Virus record (IMG/VR): IMGVR_UViG_3300045988_126989
Length of the DNA stretch: 43,134 bases
Strand: one strand, 5' to 3'
From: a virus
Shown in pieces: positions 1,732-43,134 of the stretch. The notes under the pieces are model-generated. The model worked only from the letters and a program-made list of their open reading frames with translations, did no database searches and was not told where the DNA came from. Position 1 is the first letter of the stretch, and every line of letters begins with the position of its first letter. A program made the position numbers and the translations under genes.

Positions 1732-2214
1732 TTATTGATACATATTAAACATGTCTCGTATATGTGTCTTAATCATTGTTTTTTCTTCATCTGAATCAAC
1801 GCATCCATGAATCATAGTTACGATTTGTTGCATACATTTCATAGTCTTATCTAATTCACGATGAGACTTTTCTAAATCCATATCACCTTTTGTACGCTCG
1901 TATTCTTCTTTGAACGCTTTATATTTTTTCAAATGTTCTGCAAGCTTATAAACAATATCTTCTGTTTCTGGATCATGAATATTATATCCATCATTATCTT
2001 CTTTTAATCGAGCCACAGTTGAAACCCCATCTTTTCCTATCTCAATTTGATATTTATTTCTCATTGCTTCTATCGTTTCAATATCTTTGATATTATCCAA
2101 AGCTTGAGATAATGCATGGAAATAAGATTCTGCATATCCATATTTCTCTAACATGTTTACTGACTCATGCATTATCTTTTCATTAACTTCCATTGCTTTG
2201 TGCATATTTTTCAC
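1732..2214 (-). CDS. Hypothetical helical protein (160 aa), last gene of the accessory cassette
   Basis: Intact ORF abutting 2215-2634. No recognisable motif. Confidence 0.6.
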   Translation of the reverse strand: MKNMHKAMEVNEKIMHESVNMLEKYGYAESYFHALSQALDNIKDIETIEAMRNKYQIEIGKDGVSTVARLKEDNDGYNIHDPETEDIVYKLAEHLKKYKAFKEEYERTKGDMDLEKSHRELDKTMKCMQQIVTMIHGCVDSDEEKTMIKTHIRDMFNMYQ

Positions 2215-2634
2215 CTACGCAATCTTTTTAATGATGATATTTGCATTTTGAACAGATAAATCCAAACCACTGTTATTTCCTAAAGTAATTGTGTAAGAAG
2301 CTCCACAAGGCACTTGAATCAATGTCGCTCCACTCACATTTCCATATGCGCTTGCAGTTGCAACAGTATAAATAGATTGTGTTCCTCCAATTACTTCTCC
2401 ATTTAGTTCAAGCACTAGAGAAGCTTGTCCTGCCGCTGCACTCGTAATATCCGCAGTATAAGTTACTTCATAGATTCCTTGTTTTGTTAGTGTAAACAAT
2501 CCACTTCCTAGATCGTGTGCCAACCATCCTTTACATGGACACTGGCATGATTTTGATCTTACACGATCTGTAGGAAACAAAACATTATTTGAATTATCGA
2601 CTGTCTGAACAGCCGTAGCAATACTATTAATCAT
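2215..2634 (-). CDS. Stand-alone BclA-C-terminal / C1q-TNF-like jelly-roll domain protein
   Basis: 139 aa. Pattern ..GIYEVTYTADI..ASLVLELNGEVIGGT..SGATLIQVPCGASYTITLGNNS..NANIIIKKI resembles the BclA/C1q-like C-terminal domain. No collagen repeats. Confidence 0.5.
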   Translation of the reverse strand: MINSIATAVQTVDNSNNVLFPTDRVRSKSCQCPCKGWLAHDLGSGLFTLTKQGIYEVTYTADITSAAAGQASLVLELNGEVIGGTQSIYTVATASAYGNVSGATLIQVPCGASYTITLGNNSGLDLSVQNANIIIKKIA

Positions 2635-2658
2635 TTCTTTTATCCTCCTATTAAAATA

Positions 2659-2703
2659 GGGATAGCCTTTCGACTATCCCGTTAAATCCAAAGGCAATTG
2701 CCT
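2659..2703 (-). terminator. Two intergenic hairpins (attenuator-like) between 2722-3345 and 2215-2634
   Basis: GGGATAG-8nt-CTATCCC (2659-2680), followed by a U-rich run on the minus strand. 12-bp palindrome AGGCAATTGCCT (2692-2703). Confidence 0.35.
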
Positions 2704-2721
2704 AATCACATATGTGCTAGA

Positions 2722-3345
2722 TTATAAGTTGTTGTAGCCATTACATCCACATCCGTTGTTATAAGCGTAATATGGTGAACATGTAATGTAAGCTGGTTTT
2801 GGTGTAGGTTGCAAAGTATTAATGATGTTTGCTGATTGTGCCTGTTGACTTAATTGGAAATTAGCCGTCAATAATTCACGGTCACGATCAGCTAAACGAT
2901 CACGTAATTCTTGCATTGTGTTAGCATTGATCAACGCACGTGTAGCTTCACCTTCTGAATGAATTGCTGTTGTAATGTCACAAGTGTTTTTGAAACTTTG
3001 AGCATTTACATTATCAATTGCACGTTGAGTGTTGCAGCAACATTCTTGTTGCTGAGCTTGCAAGTTTTGAAGTCCTAACTGATTAGTATAGCGACTTTCT
3101 AATACATCACGTTGAGTTTGACAACCTGTTTGAGATACATTTGTGTTTGTGTTAAAAATGTCTCGTTTAATGAATTCTTCATTTAATAAAGAATCATTTG
3201 TTAGGTTTCCGTTGCCATATCCTCCATATCCAAATAATACGAAGATTAGCAAGATCCAAATCCACCAACCTCCTCCGTCTCCAAAGCCGTCATTTCTTTC
3301 AGCTAAGTTGTAAGTTGGTTGAATTCCCATTCCGTTTTCCATCAT
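2722..3345 (-). CDS. Membrane-anchored Gly/Trp-rich, Cys-cluster, coiled-coil protein of unknown function
   Basis: 207 aa. N-terminus GFGDGGGWWIWILLIFVLFGYGGYGNGN (TM). Also QQQECCCNTQ, NTCDITTAIHSEGEATR, and C-terminal CSPYYAYNNGCGCNGYNNL. Confidence 0.6.
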   Translation of the reverse strand: MMENGMGIQPTYNLAERNDGFGDGGGWWIWILLIFVLFGYGGYGNGNLTNDSLLNEEFIKRDIFNTNTNVSQTGCQTQRDVLESRYTNQLGLQNLQAQQQECCCNTQRAIDNVNAQSFKNTCDITTAIHSEGEATRALINANTMQELRDRLADRDRELLTANFQLSQQAQSANIINTLQPTPKPAYITCSPYYAYNNGCGCNGYNNL

Positions 3346-3386
3346 ATATGTTCTCCTTTCTTTCTATAATAACGGTTTATCCGTTG

Positions 3387-3629
3387 TTACCTGATTCCAA
3401 ACTGTTTTGCCATTTGTTGCAGTTGTTGCTTTTGTTGTGGATTTAAATTACCCATCATCTGATTTAAAATCATTTGTGGATTTTGGCCACTGTTCATAAG
3501 CATTTGAAATTGTTGAAATGCTTGTGGATTTTTCTGTGATAGCATATTCATTAACATTTGTTGGGGATTTCCCATATTCATCATATTCATTGGATTCATA
3601 TTTCCCATAATACTTTTTAAAGGATTCAT
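3387..3629 (-). CDS. Met/Asn/Gln/Pro-rich low-complexity protein (80 aa)
   Basis: Repeated NPQ(Q/M/A)..M/L units. ATGA overlap with the upstream stop. AAAGGAG lies 10 nt upstream of the ATG. Confidence 0.6.
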   Translation of the reverse strand: MNPLKSIMGNMNPMNMMNMGNPQQMLMNMLSQKNPQAFQQFQMLMNSGQNPQMILNQMMGNLNPQQKQQLQQMAKQFGIR

Positions 3630-4066
3630 TTTGTTTGTGCTCCTTTCTTTGGTTGTTCATTAGCTTGTTTTGGTGGTTTGCTTAATGCACATATCAAATC
3701 ATCTAATTTCTTTTCGATTCCATTTACACGATTTTCTATACTGTTAGAAGTATCTTCCGTGATTTCTTCAAATTTAAATTTTTTAAATGTTCCATCTAAA
3801 GATTTCATATAAAAAATAGATTTATTGTTATCAAATAAAATCGTTGGTAAATTTGCATTCGCAAAGTTTCTAGCTTCCTGCTCGTCATTCACCCATTTTC
3901 CATTAAAATCAAAATTACCTTGTTGTTGTGGTGTAATCTGATTATTAATATTGATAGGTGGAATATTTGCATACTGTTGTACTTGCTGAATTTGTTGATC
4001 TATCATTTGTCTTTTCTGCATCAAGCTGTCAATTCGTGCTTGTGCTGGATTATAATTGTTATACAT
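3626..4066 (-). CDS. Hypothetical Q/N-rich protein, first gene of the accessory cassette
   Basis: The ORF track gives 3626-4075 (GTG). ATG at 4066 lies 5 nt after AGAGGTGG, so it is preferred. Confidence 0.6.
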   Translation of the reverse strand: MYNNYNPAQARIDSLMQKRQMIDQQIQQVQQYANIPPININNQITPQQQGNFDFNGKWVNDEQEARNFANANLPTILFDNNKSIFYMKSLDGTFKKFKFEEITEDTSNSIENRVNGIEKKLDDLICALSKPPKQANEQPKKGAQTK

Positions 4067-4089
4067 TTCAACCACCTCTTTACGCTTTA

Positions 4090-4118
4090 ATTATATGGTT
4101 ACGTAATAAATAATTTAA
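4090..4118 (-). promoter_or_regulatory. Candidate promoter of the accessory cassette
   Basis: Minus strand reads TTAAAT (4118-4113), 17 nt, TATAAT (4095-4090). It sits between an upstream terminator and the cassette RBS. Confidence 0.4.
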
Positions 4119-4140
4119 TACTCGAATAATACTCATAAAA

Positions 4141-4178
4141 TACCCAAAATAAAATGAGCAACCATTATTGATTGCTCA
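4141..4178 (-). terminator. Rho-independent terminator after the sigma-r4-like gene
   Basis: TGAGCAA-10nt-TTGCTCA (4155-4178), followed on the minus strand by UUUUAUUUU. The 5' arm lies in the last codons of 4165-4398. Confidence 0.6.
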
Positions 4179-4398
4179 CATATTTATCGAACATTTTTCT
4201 TGCTTTGCATACTCTGTTCCTTATGGTTTGTACTTCCACACATAATGCATCTGCAATTTCCGTGCATGACATATCATACACGTACCTCATAATCAAAACC
4301 TGTTCATATTTCTTTCTTAATCCAACAGATTTGATAAGTATTAATGCATCATTAGGACGTATCTCTTTTAATCTGTTAGCTTTGTTAATATAAACCAC
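4165..4398 (-). CDS. Small sigma-70 region-4-like HTH protein (77 aa)
   Basis: LRKKYEQVLIMRYVYDMSCTEIADALCVEVQTIRNRVCKARKMF fits the region 4.2 pattern (L..R.V..LRY....EIA......TV..R...AR..L). No regions 2 or 3. GTG start with a weak RBS. Confidence 0.55.
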   Translation of the reverse strand: MVYINKANRLKEIRPNDALILIKSVGLRKKYEQVLIMRYVYDMSCTEIADALCVEVQTIRNRVCKARKMFDKYVSNQ

Positions 4399-4979: not shown

Positions 4980-6818
4980 TTAATTATTGCGAATTTCGTT
5001 GTTCCAAGCAACTAACTCAATATTTTCTATTGTTGAATCACTTGTATTTGGTTTAAGTTCAATTTGTCTGCTCACACTATTTCCACAAACAATTGCTTTT
5101 GTTTTAAGTTGGCTTGTACCATAATAAAGCAAACGAATTGTGTTATTTCCATATAAATAGTTATCTTTGATTGAAATAAATGATTTTGCATTTGGTTGAG
5201 AAGTGTTGTGGATAGAAATAGATGCGGTTGTATCTTTACTTCCAACTGTTTCAAATATACAACTTTCAACATTAAATTCCCCGAACATCCCAAGACCAGC
5301 ACCAATACAATTATGTGCACCCCATGCAGTATTTTCTGTATTATCTAGTTTCATTTGAACATTTATATATTTATTTATATAAGGTTTATCAAAAGATGAT
5401 GGATCATCATGTGAACAGTATCTTGCATTTTTAACATCAATAATACCACCATGTAATTCAAAACCATTAATTTCATAATCCTTTGAAGAATACGGACTGT
5501 AAGGAGCAAAGTTGAAAGGTGAGAATAATTCTTTTACATTGGCATTATCACCGCTATAATGAAATTTAATTATTGCATTTGATGACATTATAATTTTAAT
5601 ACCATTACCTAAATACAGACCTCTTCTTTCTGAGCGTTCAAAGTTATTAAAAAAGTTATCGCCATAAATAGCTTTAAATTCTTCTTCAATGTCGTATTCG
5701 CCATCATCTACATATACCATTGAATTCTTATACTTTACTGCTTCAGTGACTACTGCCGAGAATGATTTATCCGTTCTGTTTTTTCCTACATAATACACAT
5801 TTGGAACAGCGGTATTAATTAATTCATTTATTCCTTTTAAATAGTCAATATAGCGATCATATGGATAATATTTATCAACTTGGAAGCCACCGTCAACTAT
5901 CATTGCATAATCAATATATGCTGAATTAAACGCAACTTTAATATATTTAGCATTAGTAGGTACACTGTATAATGTTTCCGTTAATCCTCTCTTGCCTATC
6001 ACATTTTTTCCTTCATCAAATGCAACAATATATGTGTTAAGTGTATTCCATTTCCCAACATTATAGAACCCTAACACAATGCTATTGTGTCCAGATACAT
6101 CAACATAATCACTAGCACAATATTTATTGTTAGGATCATTTACGATATCTCCATTGTCATTAATAGTTTTATTTAATGTAACTGTATCTTTATTGAACAT
6201 GTTAGGACTAATATATTCATACACACCTATACCTTTTTCTAAATAGCCTAAATCTTCCTTTAGTGAATTAACTTGTGATTGCAAATTATCATTTTGCTTA
6301 TTTATCATATTTGATAACTCAGTATAGATTTGTGCAATTCTATCTTCTTCCTCACTACTAGGTGTATAAGATTTAATATAAATTCCATCAGGTGTAATTA
6401 CAGATGCAATTTGTGTAGACCATCTTTGATCAATTACACTTGAACTATTTTTAGTCATAACTGCGCTCATCGCAAAATGTAATACTCCTGAATTTTTCAA
6501 AGCATCAAATGGCACTTTCCATGAAAATTCACAAGTATCATTATTAATTGTTTTGTTAATCGCAATTGACTGGCCTTTAACTCCCCTAGAATCAATCCAA
6601 TTTATATAAACAATTGAATCTTGCATTTTTTGAATATCAGATAACGTGTTTTTGATTCTAAATTTAATCAGTTTAGAATTTCCATCATATTGCACTCCGA
6701 ACAATCTAGATACATTATTAATATTAATAGTATGTGTATCTGTATCAATCGTAAGATATTCATCATCATAATCATAAGCAACCGCATCAAAACTTAGTCT
6801 TGCTTTTAATCCATCCAT
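4980..6818 (-). CDS. Tail fibre / receptor-binding protein (BppU-N-like N-terminus, possible beta-helix C-terminus)
   Basis: 612 aa, last large structural gene. N-terminus ..TIDTDTHTININ..GVQYDGNSKLIKFRI resembles the baseplate-upper-protein N-domain. Otherwise called by position. Confidence 0.55.
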   Translation of the reverse strand: MDGLKARLSFDAVAYDYDDEYLTIDTDTHTININNVSRLFGVQYDGNSKLIKFRIKNTLSDIQKMQDSIVYINWIDSRGVKGQSIAINKTINNDTCEFSWKVPFDALKNSGVLHFAMSAVMTKNSSSVIDQRWSTQIASVITPDGIYIKSYTPSSEEEDRIAQIYTELSNMINKQNDNLQSQVNSLKEDLGYLEKGIGVYEYISPNMFNKDTVTLNKTINDNGDIVNDPNNKYCASDYVDVSGHNSIVLGFYNVGKWNTLNTYIVAFDEGKNVIGKRGLTETLYSVPTNAKYIKVAFNSAYIDYAMIVDGGFQVDKYYPYDRYIDYLKGINELINTAVPNVYYVGKNRTDKSFSAVVTEAVKYKNSMVYVDDGEYDIEEEFKAIYGDNFFNNFERSERRGLYLGNGIKIIMSSNAIIKFHYSGDNANVKELFSPFNFAPYSPYSSKDYEINGFELHGGIIDVKNARYCSHDDPSSFDKPYINKYINVQMKLDNTENTAWGAHNCIGAGLGMFGEFNVESCIFETVGSKDTTASISIHNTSQPNAKSFISIKDNYLYGNNTIRLLYYGTSQLKTKAIVCGNSVSRQIELKPNTSDSTIENIELVAWNNEIRNN

Positions 6819-16864: not shown

Positions 16865-17189
16865 CTAATGTCACCGTCCATTCTGTACAGTGTACTTTTT
16901 GAGCTTTTATATCTTCATCTGTGATAGTTTGGTATGGTATTTCTAATTCATCGAACATGTCTTCGATTTTAGCTTCTAATTCAAAATCTTTTTGATCAGT
17001 CACTAATCTATATATGTAAGTTCCAATCTTGCAATACGTTCTATTGTCTGCAAAGTAATTATTTGTATAATCCAATGCATAATTCCCATATGGAGTATGG
17101 GGCTTTGACTTGAAACTGCCATATACAAATTGTCCTTCACCTAAAAGTTCAGTGAATTTAGCAACGATTTGTTTTCTTACTGTTTCCAT
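16851..17189 (-). CDS. Neck / head-tail joining protein (position-based)
   Basis: 112 aa, overlapping its neighbours within the neck module. Confidence 0.45.
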   Translation of the reverse strand: METVRKQIVAKFTELLGEGQFVYGSFKSKPHTPYGNYALDYTNNYFADNRTYCKIGTYIYRLVTDQKDFELEAKIEDMFDELEIPYQTITDEDIKAQKVHCTEWTVTLVGRQ

Positions 17190-22790: not shown

Positions 22791-23179
22791 TTAAATCTGC
22801 TCATGAACTCATCCAATTCATCACCTTTTTTTCCGGATACTTCTGTTGTTTTTGAAAGTGAAGTAGGTGACAAGCCAAGTTCTTTGCAGTATTTCATAAT
22901 TTGATCACGTAATTGAACGGTAATAATGTAATATGGTGAGCGTGATAAATTCGTTGCACCAGCCTTGTTCGTGTATTCAACAACCATCTGTAATGTTTTG
23001 AAACCATTTGCTTTGCTTGAATCTCTCCATTGCTTCATTGTTGAATCATATTGGGCCAAGGCATCTGCAAGTGAATCAATCGCAACCGAATATTCAGGGG
23101 AATATGTACCTAAATTTTCTAGTTGAGAATTTATTCTTTTTTTCCATGCTCCTTTTTGCATTCTTCCTCCCTTCCACAT
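22787..23179 (-). CDS. terS: Terminase small subunit (P27-family-like)
   Basis: About 125 aa. C-terminal ..CKELGLSPTSLSK.. is typical of the P27 family. Overlaps the terL start. Confidence 0.7.
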   Translation of the reverse strand: MWKGGRMQKGAWKKRINSQLENLGTYSPEYSVAIDSLADALAQYDSTMKQWRDSSKANGFKTLQMVVEYTNKAGATNLSRSPYYIITVQLRDQIMKYCKELGLSPTSLSKTTEVSGKKGDELDEFMSRFK

Positions 23180-23502
23180 CCTATAAGCATTCCATTTTCA
23201 TCAAATTCAAAAGATGGTTTGCGTTTGGAATGTTCTTCTGCATGGCATAAGTCACACAACGCTTCCAAATTAGAATCACCAAATAGAATGTGTATATCTC
23301 TATAGTTGTCCTGGTCAATGTGTACTTTGTGGTGCACACAAGTAGACCTTGTATAGATTCCTTTTTTTAAACACCTTTCACAAAGCGGATGCGCCTTTCT
23401 ATACGCTTTACTTTTCTTTTCCCAAGCCTTGCTTGAGTAGAATTTTCTAGCATAATTTCTAGCGCCCGTTTTCGTTGCTTCTGAACCATAATATTTTTTC
23501 AT
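23131..23502 (-). CDS. HNH endonuclease associated with cos-type packaging
   Basis: CERCLKKG..VHHKVHI..LCDLCHAEEH (HNH/zinc motifs). Located directly upstream of terS/terL, as in HK97-like cos phages. Confidence 0.85.
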   Translation of the reverse strand: MKKYYGSEATKTGARNYARKFYSSKAWEKKSKAYRKAHPLCERCLKKGIYTRSTCVHHKVHIDQDNYRDIHILFGDSNLEALCDLCHAEEHSKRKPSFEFDENGMLIGCGREEECKKEHGKKE

Positions 23503-23578
23503 ATCGCTACATTCAAAGTTTTAGTTAACAGATTTAAAGGACGACAATATGAACAGTAAACCCTTTGAATGCAGTGAT
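23503..23578 (-). promoter_or_regulatory. 16-bp imperfect inverted repeat abutting the HNH start codon
   Basis: ATCGCTACATTCAAAG (23503-23518) versus CTTTGAATGCAGTGAT (23563-23578), 14/16 complementary. No Shine-Dalgarno precedes the ATG at 23502. Confidence 0.45.
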
Positions 23579-23581
23579 ATG

Positions 23582-23611
23582 AAAAAGACCCGTGTTTCCA
23601 CAGGTCTTTTT
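23582..23611. terminator. Bidirectional rho-independent terminator in the late-operon leader
   Basis: AAAAA-GACCCGTG-tttc-CACAGGTC-TTTTT. 8-bp stem with one mismatch, and A/T runs on both sides. Confidence 0.6.
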
Positions 23612-23689
23612 CAAACGGGCACAATATGAAACAATCCAAGAACTACCTTGTTTGTGTTCTAGAAGATGTTTTCCAATCTTCACAACTAC

Positions 23690-23726
23690 AGAATATCACG
23701 GTTTTTCTTTGTACACTGTACAAAAT
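23690..23726 (-). promoter_or_regulatory. Putative late promoter for the packaging/head/tail operon: same 19-nt box plus -10-like hexamer
   Basis: TTTGTACACTGTACAAAAT (23708-23726) is identical to 1692-1710. After 12 nt on the minus strand comes TATTCT (23695-23690). Confidence 0.5.
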
Positions 23727-23735
23727 GAAGAAATT

Positions 23736-23837
23736 CAGATTTTACCCCCCTCTCGTGCGCGCATGACCGAGTTTTTTTAAACTCCCCACGCCGTTCCCCG
23801 AAACGCAAAAAACTTCCGAAAGATAGGGGGGTATCTG
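23736..23837. repeat. Interrupted 13-bp inverted repeat with C6/G6 runs enclosing a GC-rich 73-nt segment (cos-region or RNA-stem candidate)
   Basis: CAGAT-ttt-ACCCCCCT (23736-23751) pairs with AGGGGGGT-ATCTG (23825-23837). An internal hairpin GAGTTT-tttt-AAACTC is present. Confidence 0.5.
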
Positions 23838-24149
23838 CTGATCTGATCCCAGCCAAGGGCGCTTTCAGGGTTCAAAATTTGGATTATGCAGCTACCACCA
23901 CACCGCACCATTCACGGCTTTAATCATATGACATTCACATATTTATTATTGTGTTGAAACATTTTTCAACACGCATTGTTGAAAGCGTGTTTCATACCAT
24001 AGCCATGACTACATCAATAGAACACGCGCGCACGTTCTTATATATGCAATAACTCTTGCATCACTCCAGTGCATTGCATCATGCGCACCCGTTCCATATG
24101 TTTTTAGCGTGTCGCTTGGCTTCCTTGATGGAGCTCAAGCAAACCACAC

Positions 24150-24173
24150 AAAAAAAGGACGCTCACCACGTCC
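24150..24173 (-). terminator. Short intrinsic terminator on the minus strand
   Basis: GGACG-7nt-CGTCC followed by U7 in minus-strand RNA. The stem is only 5 bp. Confidence 0.4.
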
Positions 24174-24196
24174 ATACATGTATATAATACCGGTCT

Positions 24197-24253
24197 GATA
24201 ACTATATCTTATAAGACCAAAAGCGAACACGCTTAAAAGCCTTATAAATAGGC
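24197..24253. repeat. Copy B of a 57-bp repeated module (copy A at 29094-29150)
   Basis: GATAACTATATcTTATaAGACCAA matches copy A at 22/24. AAAAGCCTtaTAAATAGGC matches at 17/19. Same orientation. Confidence 0.7.
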
Positions 24254-24326
24254 GCTTGCGTGCACGTTTGAGAATACAAAAGCTTTTTGAAAAAATGAGC
24301 ACCGAAAAAATATTATTAATTTTTTA

Positions 24327-24354
24327 TTGACATATACATGTATATGTTTATAAT
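24327..24354 (+). promoter_or_regulatory. Consensus sigma-70-type promoter of the plus-strand island
   Basis: TTGACA (24327-32), 16 nt, TATAAT (24349-54). Confidence 0.7.
24331..24346. promoter_or_regulatory. Perfect 16-bp palindrome (operator candidate) inside the promoter spacer
   Basis: CATATACATGTATATG is its own reverse complement. It overlaps the -35 and the spacer. Confidence 0.55.
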
Positions 24355-24358
24355 GTAA

Positions 24359-24618
24359 GTGTAAGCTAAATAAAAAGCTTACACAAAACAAACGGCGCTT
24401 ACTCATAAAGCCAAGCCAAGACAACTATAAATTGATAGATTGGACTTGATAGTATGGATAAGTTTATAAGCCTATTAAATAAATTGTTGTTTAAACTTCA
24501 TATAAAAATAAGTTTAGACATAAAAAAAGGGCGCTTACTCATAGACATAAAAGTCAATGAATAGCGTCATTAAATAAGCAAATAAATTATAGCGCCGTTT
24601 GTTTAAATAGTCAAGTTT
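24359..24618 (+). promoter_or_regulatory. Structured 5' leader of the plus-strand island
   Basis: 5' hairpin GTGTAAGCT-8nt-AGCTTACAC (24359-84). 14-nt perfect long-range complement 24386-99 / 24591-604. Direct repeat GGCGCTTACTCATA at 24394 and 24530. Confidence 0.45.
24586..24614 (-). promoter_or_regulatory. Near-consensus minus-strand promoter facing the island promoter
   Basis: Minus strand reads TTGACT (24614-09), 17 nt, TATAAT (24591-86). Predicted start sites of the two promoters are about 220 nt apart, with overlapping transcripts. Confidence 0.6.
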
Positions 24619-24631
24619 AGGAGGTGTAAAC

Positions 24632-24823
24632 ATTGTAAGAAAAAAAAGTGGTTCTTTCAATCAAATAGAATACATAAAAGAATTTAATAAAGCCAATTAT
24701 AGAAAATACGAAATCAGAGTGAAAAAAGAAAATATAGACCTTATAAAATGGCTTGATAAACAACCAAATAAAACCGCTTATATAGTAGATTTGATTGAAA
24801 AAGACATGAACAAAAAAAAATAA
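24632..24823 (+). CDS. Small ribbon-helix-helix-like DNA-binding protein with a non-canonical ATT start (63 codons)
   Basis: AGGAGG (24619-24), 7 nt, ATT. Frame open to TAA 24821-23. No ATG/GTG/TTG is available upstream. ..YRKYEIRVKKENIDLIKWLDKQPNKTAYIVDLIEKDM looks like strand-helix-helix. Confidence 0.4.
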   Translation: MVRKKSGSFNQIEYIKEFNKANYRKYEIRVKKENIDLIKWLDKQPNKTAYIVDLIEKDMNKKK

Positions 24824-24909
24824 AAACGTGAACCCCTTCCAGGTCGCCAAACTCAAAAGGGATTCACACAACGGCAATTATACACAATATTCAGGAGGTT
24901 AAGCCCGTC

Positions 24910-24960
24910 TTGTATATATTGCTTTTCTATTCTACCATAGACGGGTTAAAAAGAAAATGA
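24910..24960 (+). CDS. 16-codon upstream mini-ORF, possibly coupling translation into 24957-25439
   Basis: AGGAGG (24893-98), 11 nt, TTG. MYILLFYSTIDGLKRK. Its TGA overlaps the downstream ATG (ATGA), and the downstream gene lacks its own SD. Confidence 0.25.
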   Translation: MYILLFYSTIDGLKRK

Positions 24961-43041: not shown

Positions 43042-43064
43042 TATTTTAATATCAAATTATACCC
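43029..43064. repeat. 9-bp inverted repeat flanking an AT-rich 18-nt spacer (core-site or operator candidate)
   Basis: GGGTATAAT (43029-37) ... ATTATACCC (43056-64). The right arm is the first 9 nt of the terminal repeat. Confidence 0.6.
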
Positions 43065-43134
43065 CAATATACCCCAAGACAAATAAAAAAGCCTTTAAAT
43101 AAAGGCTTAAAATTCGATGGAGCAGATGAGGGGA
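43056..43134. repeat. Terminal direct repeat, copy 2
   Basis: Identical to 1-79. Confidence 0.95.

Follow-up and report, generated by a model that had tools for sequence, protein, structure and literature searches.

The 43,134-nucleotide viral record IMGVR_UViG_3300045988_126989, referred to below as the window, carries a cassette of five minus-strand genes, g1–g5, between its tail-fibre and lysis genes (Table 1). This cassette represents one instance of a conserved accessory module that spreads horizontally among tailed phages of gut and rumen anaerobes. It is best described as a self-regulated phage module that is widely distributed and previously undescribed. The parts of the module are a small regulator gene (sig4), a terminator and a repeat-bearing promoter, the core genes g1, g2 and g3, either g4 or an alternative gene termed c3, a variable helical protein and sometimes a further gene, c8. 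We regard the identity of the module and its regulatory autonomy as very highly probable. A first-pass annotation, made from the sequence alone, had described a self-contained cassette of five genes; the five co-oriented open reading frames (ORFs) and their insulation were recovered, but the unit is bigger, with sig4 belonging to it.

Conservation and mobility of the module

Loci were collected by a scan of GTDB using one genome per species, in which 223 loci were found and 80 were fetched. ORFs were called in all loci, iterated hidden Markov models (HMMs) were derived from the window proteins and neighbouring genes were clustered; occupancy counts refer to 88 loci with g3. The synteny survey of homologous cassettes that had been suggested as a check returned a conserved gene order, which recurs in these 88 loci. 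On one strand, the helix-turn-helix (HTH) gene sig4 is followed by a terminator, g1, g2, g3, g4 or c3, and then g5, c5 or c6. g1 was present in 78 of the 88 loci as gene −2 (upstream of g2 and g3) and g2 in 64 as gene −1, with c49 variants in addition.

Adjacent copies of g3 and g4 were also found in other phage records using tblastn. ORF maps of phage records gave the order g1–g2–g3–(small gene)–g4–(helical gene) in three settings: between a Mu-F-like head (minor capsid) gene and a scaffold gene (MT837318), after an M15 peptidase gene (MT838536) and after an integrase gene (Dulem virus 39). In Butyrivibrio phage Ceridwen, sig4, the terminator, c8, g1, g2, g3, g4, an HNH gene and a g5-like gene come directly after the lysis genes; this phage was observed only in the lytic cycle and was judged to be virulent by its authors (PMC7372960). 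A Pfam census of the flanks identified lysis enzymes, holins, minor capsid, tail-fibre and integrase genes upstream, and scaffold, integrase, Gp157, ERF and RecU genes downstream. The module thus occupies various boundaries between gene modules, and the end of the late region is its commonest location.

Many of the hosts are Clostridia, and Clostridium perfringens phages also carry the module. It was further found in long contigs of Phascolarctobacterium (545 kb) and Dialister (2.5 Mb), in four Treponema, in about eight Gastranaerophilales/Vampirovibrio and in Bacteroidales and Fibrobacter bins. Because such assignments recur independently and include the long contigs, a distribution limited to spore-forming Firmicutes is untenable.

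Among close relatives of the window phage recovered via its XhlA-like gene, the whole cassette was kept in 47 of 53. One of the 53 relatives, L102, has a clean 1.8-kb deletion with its endpoints within sig4 and g4 (window 4330 to 2531; L102 6594–6647) and takes out sig4, g1, g2, g3 and the N-terminus of g4. The fusion proteins P0140 (g1 with BclA_C) and P0294 (HTH with BclA_C) look like the outcome of similar deletions. Given this deletion and the 47 intact cassettes, the module is considered to be dispensable, or accessory, but strongly maintained.

The module shares several features with phage morons and lysogenic-conversion cassettes, which are additional genes, equipped with a promoter and terminator, lodged between conserved phage genes. 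Terminator insulation and a promoter of its own are present by prediction, and the varied insertion sites and presence/absence polymorphism are seen in the different contexts described above, in the L102 deletion and in the retention of the cassette by 47 of the 53 relatives. In contrast to morons, the module is conserved as a set of 5–8 genes that has its own HTH regulator, occurs in several phyla and in a virulent phage, and includes no recognizable host-benefit gene. A literature search on DUF7841, Holdemanella prophages, BclA-like prophage proteins and C. perfringens phage virion proteomes returned nothing on the module, and comparison of the cassette region with 50,697 phage records using megablast gave no match.

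Free-standing HNH/AP2 homing-endonuclease genes were observed inside the module in at least five unrelated phage loci (L002, 5005–5655; L018, c23 on the minus strand; L029, 2762–3211; L065, 6762–7217; L090, 5377–6240). These insertions suggest that homing between co-infecting phages often targets the module or uses it as a vehicle.

Regulatory elements and the sig4 gene

A terminator scan identified minus-strand hairpins at 4179–4154, 2680–2659 and 1733–1713, in agreement with the upstream terminator, internal hairpins and downstream terminator of the first-pass annotation. The z-scores in Table 1 were obtained by RNA folding against shuffled sequence. Over 7 kb, six terminator-like hairpins were observed compared with 2.3 ± 1.7 expected. 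The upstream terminator is predicted to shield the cassette from late-operon read-through. Its stem is kept by compensatory substitutions (GAGCAATC/GGTTGCTC versus GAGTGATC/GATCACTC) in locus L011, in which g3 is 88% identical, and a GC-rich hairpin with a T-run was found again between sig4 and g1 in many loci. The hairpins between g3 and g4 are possibly a partial terminator or an RNA-stability element.

The promoter-like TTAAAT-17-TATAAT sequence that had been assigned to the cassette is present, and in L011 both hexamers are invariant while the 17 bp spacer has diverged. It lies under the cut-off of a consensus scan, with a score of 3/6 for the −35 hexamer, and promoter-like sites overall show no enrichment in this AT-rich DNA (27 observed versus 38.7 expected). 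Three direct repeats with 11-bp phasing abut or overlap the −35 hexamer. The sequence GAGTATTA has only three occurrences in the 43-kb window by pattern search; the 8-nt repeats were checked by pattern search and a custom scan, and a general repeat finder did not list them. The repeats are retained in L011 as (G/T)AGTAT, three times. Where repeats of at least 7 nt were found upstream of g1 across loci, the spacing was exactly 11 bp in 17 of 24 cases. Exact direct repeats of at least 8 nt spaced by 9–13 bp were present in 20.5% of g1 upstream regions compared with 7.9% of control upstream regions. Phased repeats of this kind would fit a promoter that needs an HTH activator on tandem sites, for which sig4 is the obvious candidate.

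The sig4 product matches Pfam Sigma70_r4_2 above the cut-off (E = 5.8e-9); only Sigma70_r4_2 and r4 match, at residues 27–68 of 77. PHROG matches are to sigma-factor and Q-like families (PHROG 79, Q-like, E = 2e-5), and NCBIfam matches are to extracytoplasmic function (ECF) and positive-control sigma-like families, covering region 4 (the C-terminal end) only. Membership of the sigma-70/ECF factors takes both region 2, for −10 recognition and core binding, and region 4, and in sig4 region 4 alone was matched. The score against Phage_antitermQ (PF06530) is 20.5 bits, under the cut-off of 26 (E = 4.9e-4), and sig4 was not classed with the lambda Q-type antiterminators.

Two known systems invite comparison. 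In lambda Q/PR′/tR′, a small regulator gene likewise stands directly before a promoter and an intrinsic terminator, which control the genes beyond them, and the weak matches of sig4 to Phage_antitermQ and to a Q-like PHROG family point the same way. In the window, however, the terminator precedes the promoter, so that antitermination is not required, and Q-type antitermination was dropped for this reason. Elements for Q binding or pausing were not identified either. The late region of PBSX of Bacillus subtilis, with the sigma-like positive control factor Xpf and the lysis genes xhlA-xhlB-xlyA, is a similar setting: in the window, genes for putative XhlA-like proteins, a holin and an amidase endolysin surround the cassette, and sig4 has a weak match to 'positive control sigma-like factor' in NCBIfam. 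A difference is that sig4 has region 4 only and so is not a complete sigma factor. g1–g5 are not known to have a counterpart in PBSX.

A sig4 homologue lies directly upstream of g1 in 47 of the 88 loci, normally as gene −3 from g3. The regulator in six loci (L015, L026, L046, L069, L070 and L079) is an AgrB-like polytopic membrane domain fused to an HTH of the same type, and another polytopic membrane protein precedes these fusions. Their domain composition points to a putative membrane-tethered form of the regulator. The cassette should be extended upstream to include sig4 (4165–4398): its insulation had been correctly described, but the putative dedicated sigma-region-4 regulator gene just upstream had been overlooked.

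At the downstream boundary, outside the cassette, the holin gene is preceded by the 19-nt palindromic element ATTTTGTACAGTGTACAAA. An identical copy at 23706–23724 stands at the head of the late operon, upstream of HNH and terminase genes, and a third copy at 16884–16896 has one mismatch; three copies in the window compare with 0.11 expected. The element probably acts as a late promoter or operator common to these sites. As it both precedes the holin gene and heads the late operon, the lysis genes appear to be under a late control element of their own, in line with the separate holin promoter box proposed earlier.

Products of the module

In the AlphaFold2 (AF2) model of g1, a Q/N-rich helix at the N-terminus leads through a disordered P/Q linker into a small conserved α/β domain, and the C-terminus is again helical; the mean predicted local distance difference test score (pLDDT) is 73.8, with values of 83–96 for residues 55–135. 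Comparison of this model with BFVD returned dozens of uncharacterized proteins from uncultured sipho-, myo- and podovirus contigs. No PDB fold matched at E < 0.06 (best E = 0.066), and a resemblance to the collagen XVIII trimerization domain (E = 0.23) was too weak to use. The g2 product is helical and Q/N/M/P-rich. With Q+N contents of 24 and 38%, respectively, and 20% M in g2, g1 and g2 are indeed the two Q/N-rich proteins that had been noted. g1 belongs to PHROG 21718 and the Ceridwen homologue of g2 to PHROG 22984, both annotated as function unknown.

g3 had been described as a Gly/Trp-rich transmembrane (TM) protein with CCC/CGC clusters, and the compositional part of this description also holds. 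It contains 18 Gly, three Trp and eight Cys residues, including the CCC motif and a C-terminal CGC, and a single hydrophobic segment, GWWIWILLIFVLFGYGG, that forms a Gly/Trp-flanked helix after a short N-terminal tail. In alignments the CCC motif (in a long helical region), LRD and PAYxTCSPY are invariant, and the C-terminus ends in a CGC(GC) tail. A collection of 5.8 billion proteins contained 5,106 homologue clusters (E ≤ 1e-3), none with a Pfam domain or a name. The hallmark protein of the module, g3, has more than 5,000 clusters in public data and yet is without a Pfam family, a name or literature; its PHROG families, 16490 and 9288, are of unknown function. A YjcZ-like 'tiny TM' assignment of the g3 anchor was considered and had no NCBIfam support.

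When profiles of the g1, g3, c3 and c8 families were run against PDB sequences, nothing significant was returned. No significant match for g1–g5 was obtained in NCBIfam or PADLOC (5027 defence-system models), and PADLOC gave none for sig4 either. A hydrophobic segment was found only in g3; g1, g2, g4 and g5 have neither a signal peptide nor a hydrophobic segment.

The g4 product scores 34.6 bits against Pfam BclA_C (PF18573), under the gathering score of 38 (E = 1.9e-8), and most of its close homologues carry a precomputed PF18573 match. A profile of the g4 family (32 members) matched PDB entry 9H38, the crystal structure of the Bacillus thuringiensis F-BclA C-terminal domain (PMC12357932), with E = 1.4e-8 over profile positions 3–133 of 137, and matched the BclA entries 2Z5W, 2R6Q, 3TWI and 1WCK with E of about 5e-3. 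From these full-length profile matches, which uphold the jelly roll of the first-pass annotation, g4 is predicted to be a stand-alone BclA-C-terminal-like (TNF/C1q-like) β-sandwich. Its homology to the BclA/F-BclA domain, which occurs in the Bacillus exosporium nap and in endospore-appendage (ENA) tip fibrils, extends across the whole jelly roll. In g4 there are cysteines within the N-terminal 40 residues (SCQCPC), and the g4 family has cysteines N-terminal to the domain, as ENA tip proteins do (PMC12357932). It differs from the BclA-type exosporium glycoproteins in that g4 has neither a collagen-like stalk of GXY repeats nor an exosporium-targeting N-terminus. It is instead a stand-alone protein of about 140 residues, encoded by a phage of a non-sporulating host and interchangeable with an unrelated protein. 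Nearly all of the 119 g4 homologues have 137–145 residues, and they are without collagen repeats or a collagen Pfam domain.

The interchangeable protein is c3, a Cys-rich β protein with N-terminal cysteines that is unrelated to g4. In 36 of the 88 loci the first or second gene after g3 is g4, and in 43 the slot holds c3; the two are mutually exclusive. The slot after g4 or c3 is occupied by g5 in 19 loci, by a DUF7841 protein (c5) in 33 and by a ferritin homologue (c6) in 14. Profile–profile comparisons detected no homology between g4 and c3, or between g5 and c5 and c6. The g5 protein is helical, with 157–160 residues, and had no significant family in Pfam, PHROG or NCBIfam; its relatives often have an Arg/Gly/Tyr-rich insert. 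The c6 proteins (for example L018 9333–9926, and 13 other loci) match PDB ferritins with a profile E of 2e-5 and have conserved His and Glu positions. In 13 loci c8 follows, with a conserved Cys-His-Asp pattern.

In composition, the module resembles the S-/L-ENA endospore appendages, which have N-terminal Cys connectors, in that it likewise combines small β-sandwich subunits bearing N-terminal cysteines with Cys-rich partners. c3, g1 and g3 have no sequence similarity to Ena proteins in the PDB, and the likeness is an analogy only. By the same analogy (PMC12357932), cytoplasmic self-assembly would be implied for these subunits of the module because signal peptides are absent.

Proposed function, rival explanations and genome context

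We infer the timing, assembly and purpose of the module as follows. In the simplest reading, a relay runs from the late operon to sig4 and then to g1–g5. The sig4 protein would be made as the last product of the late operon, bind the GAGTATTA repeats and switch on g1–g5 very late in the lytic cycle. Since no product except g3 has an export signal, the products are proposed to assemble in the cytoplasm on the g3 anchor. The Cys clusters of g3 (CCC, TCSPY and the C-terminal CGC) may pair with the N-terminal cysteines of the TNF-like g4, presumed to be a trimer, and the outcome would be a membrane-tethered, cysteine- or metal-linked multiprotein structure acting at or after lysis. Purely as an analogy, such a g3-anchored complex would resemble cytoplasmic Cys-mediated endospore-appendage assembly with BclA-type tips (PMC12357932), and the homology of g4 to the trimeric F-BclA C-terminal domain described there, and to BclA, was counted as support for assembly. 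The mechanism as a whole, that of a mobile, self-activated, late-lytic module building a membrane-anchored, cysteine-linked protein assembly, is the likeliest of the explanations weighed here; it is put forward tentatively and falls somewhat short of being probable.

Several points weigh against this mechanism. Activation by sig4 is suggested by the adjacency of the genes, no sig4 was detected near g1 in 41 of the 88 loci and the −35 hexamer of the cassette promoter is weak. The structure and HMM check proposed in the first-pass annotation yielded a fold for g4, but g1 is without a PDB fold match and the AF2 model of g3 (helices at 27–39, 92–104 and 119–169) is of low confidence (pLDDT 47), is unusable for a fold search and does not fix the topology. 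The g1, g2, g3 and g5 proteins match no characterized family in the Pfam, PHROG, NCBIfam, PADLOC and PDB searches. Many of the host assignments are metagenome bins, which are prone to mis-assigning phage contigs, and the position of the cassette, beside lysis genes and att sites, is one that lysogenic-conversion genes typically occupy as well.

A bolder form of the same proposal is that the module is a phage-built supramolecular structure, a membrane-anchored lattice or fibre assembled late in gut anaerobes under sig4 control. Its parts would be a BclA-C-terminal-like trimer or Cys-rich β protein, ferritin-like or helical partners and Q/N/G/Y-rich linkers, joined by cysteines or metal. We consider this form improbable. 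If true, it would be a phage counterpart of exosporium and endospore-appendage chemistry, freed at lysis, and the lattice would aggregate or shield virions or transmit them across the oxic gap between hosts. The module passes intact between phages of different bacterial phyla in gut and rumen samples; such conservation, combined with a regulator of its own and strict insulation, implies that it has a selectable function in gut phages that has been missed by annotation. Cultured carriers exist (Butyrivibrio phage Ceridwen and CPD1-like phages of C. perfringens), which makes the question directly testable.

Four other explanations were weighed. The products might instead be lysis-timing or egress accessories that modulate holin triggering or envelope breakdown, elaborating the XhlA–holin–endolysin cassette. 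The cassette has XhlA-like genes on one side and the holin and endolysin genes on the other, lysis genes are the commonest recognizable upstream neighbours across loci, and tight insulation with a dedicated activator would suit a function that is barred from early expression. The TM helix, coiled coil and cysteines of g3 could also be taken as reminiscent of spanin- or antiholin-like proteins. We nevertheless find this explanation unlikely: the module also occurs far from lysis genes and in monoderm and diderm hosts alike, no product is homologous to holins, spanins or endolysins, and no role in lysis is known for jelly-roll or ferritin-like components.

Superinfection exclusion, or other prophage protection, in which g3 and its partners block phage entry or DNA injection or mask receptors on lysis debris, is quite unlikely in our view. 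None of the 5027 defence-system models matched, known systems have one or two genes rather than a conserved unit of 5–8 with structural-looking proteins, and the module is carried by a phage regarded as virulent. It is also conserved across very different envelopes, whereas exclusion proteins are usually specific to a host or receptor. What speaks for exclusion is the place of the cassette among accessory genes at module boundaries, its membrane-anchored protein, its dispensability in the natural deletion variant and an insulated promoter and terminator like those of other morons.

The first-pass annotation had offered, as one hypothesis, remodelling of the spore or cell surface by lysogenic conversion. 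Lysogens would express the cassette, and its BclA-like and Cys-rich proteins would be built into the surface layers of the host, either the spore/exosporium or the vegetative cell surface. The true homology of g4 to exosporium and endospore-appendage BclA C-terminal domains, the coat-protein-like Cys-rich and Q/N/G/Y-rich composition, the moron-like promoter and terminators and the many Clostridia hosts, with C. perfringens phages among the carriers, all agree with it. The host of the window phage does not. Genome annotations of Holdemanella biformis contain the same or nearly the same proteins (WP_302129787.1), and a 99.7-kb contig has the same prophage end beside radC, mreC and polA; the host is H. 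biformis, a non-sporulating member of the Erysipelotrichaceae. H. biformis DSM 3989 is among the Erysipelotrichaceae isolates of PMC8340488; as it is not one of the four spore-formers named there, it falls by elimination into the group of ethanol-sensitive 'former spore-formers', whose sporulation scores are 19–23%. The module also occurs in Negativicutes and in Treponema, Gastranaerophilales and Bacteroidales bins, and in the virulent-judged Ceridwen, whose Butyrivibrio host is a non-spore-former. Host, distribution and Ceridwen together disfavour both spore-surface remodelling and a general role in lysogenic conversion. In addition, g4 is without the stalk and targeting N-terminus of BclA, an unrelated family replaces it in 43 loci and no product other than g3 has an export signal. 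Lysogenic conversion of any kind is more than ordinarily improbable, its spore version is largely refuted and spore remodelling by this cassette is very unlikely. 'BclA-like' or Cys-rich phage proteins should not be read as spore-related.

A virion accessory set is the least probable explanation; its tail-fibre version had been the alternative in the first-pass annotation. The products would be chaperones or tip domains of tail fibres, or head decorations, and g4 would bind the receptor as a trimeric tip. TNF/C1q-like trimers act as fibre tips in other systems, the cassette comes after a tail-fibre gene in the window and the module lies inside a head gene cluster in some phages. Against this, it keeps no constant place with respect to tail or head genes (in other phages it follows an integrase or lysis genes, or separates head-morphogenesis from scaffold genes), a conserved terminator cuts it off from the structural operon and g3 has a membrane-type hydrophobic helix, for which reasons a tail-fibre set is disfavoured; furthermore, the module occurs in sipho-, myo- and podovirus-labelled contigs, a deletion variant exists and no product resembles known chaperones or fibres in Pfam, PHROG or the PDB, homology that would have told against the first-pass reading.

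The features of the cassette and its surroundings are given in Table 1. The window ends in an exact 79-bp terminal direct repeat (1–79 and 43056–43134), and the viral contig L102 bridges the window end to the window start; on these grounds the window is taken to be a complete phage genome. The repeat represents either att cores or a circular-assembly overlap. The minus strand carries every gene from position 1 to about 23,500. The 97-residue XhlA-like protein matches PHROG 1863, 1009 and 937 ('hemolysin') with E values of 3.5e-7 to 6e-5, its Pfam matches are to generic coiled coils and its TM helix is at residues 6–22. Homologues of this gene and of the adjacent 76-residue TM gene were detectable in only seven of the 88 loci, and analogous TM/coiled-coil genes (c44 and c33) lie near the module in other loci; the two are frequent neighbours of the module, outside its core.

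Table 1. Positions of the cassette, its regulatory elements and neighbouring genes in the window
Feature	Position	Strand	Remarks
Tail fibre	4980–6818	−	Upstream of XhlA-like gene
XhlA-like protein, 97 aa	4623–4916	−	TM helix and coiled coil; PHROG hemolysin/XhlA-like families
TM protein, 76 aa	4403–4633	−	Hydrophobic segment
sig4, 77 aa	4165–4398	−	Pfam Sigma70_r4_2; last gene of upstream late transcription unit
Upstream intrinsic terminator	4154–4179	−	Overlaps sig4 stop codon; ΔG −14.9 kcal/mol, z −4.7
Three direct repeats, 11-bp phasing	4116–4145	−	GGGTATT 4145–4139, GAGTATTA 4134–4127, GAGTATTA 4123–4116; abut/overlap −35
Promoter-like sequence	4090–4118	−	TTAAAT (4118–4113), 17 bp, TATAAT (4095–4090); from sequence, hexamers kept in L011
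g1, 149 aa	3626–4075	−	Likely true start ATG at 4066, giving 146 aa
g2, 80 aa	3387–3629	−	ORF
g3, 207 aa	2722–3345	−	ORF
Internal hairpins between g3 and g4	2659–2703	−	9-bp stem, five GC pairs; ΔG −20.3 kcal/mol, z −2.5
g4, 139 aa	2215–2634	−	ORF; BclA_C-like
g5, 160 aa	1732–2214	−	Likely start ATG at 2205, giving 157 aa
Intrinsic terminator closing cassette	1713–1733	−	z −4.05
19-nt palindromic element ATTTTGTACAGTGTACAAA	1690–1708	−	Palindrome TGTACAnTGTACA; upstream of holin gene, marks downstream boundary, outside cassette
r1t-type holin	1428–1652	−	Downstream of cassette
Highly acidic 36-aa ORF MSDKEKEVKFEDLPEEAQTELSNGKEDGEEECHTQA	1315–1425	−	Between holin and endolysin, overlapping endolysin start
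Endolysin	266–1333	−	Amidase_2 and SH3_5; last gene in series

Rfam and tRNA scans of the window were empty, including the 23503–24956 stretch, in which about 1.4 kb without convincing ORFs separates the late operon from the divergent early genes. This stretch contains a G+C-rich patch and a terminator-like hairpin near 23,570–23,600. A 123-residue HNH-endonuclease-like gene (23131–23502) lies directly upstream of the small and large terminase genes, an arrangement typical of HNH-dependent cos packaging. The endolysin is swapped between otherwise near-identical prophages: the Amidase_2 and SH3_5 enzyme of the window is exchanged for a CHAP-domain enzyme in a Holdemanella contig (L006 11920–12687), in which the holin gene and the cassette are kept.

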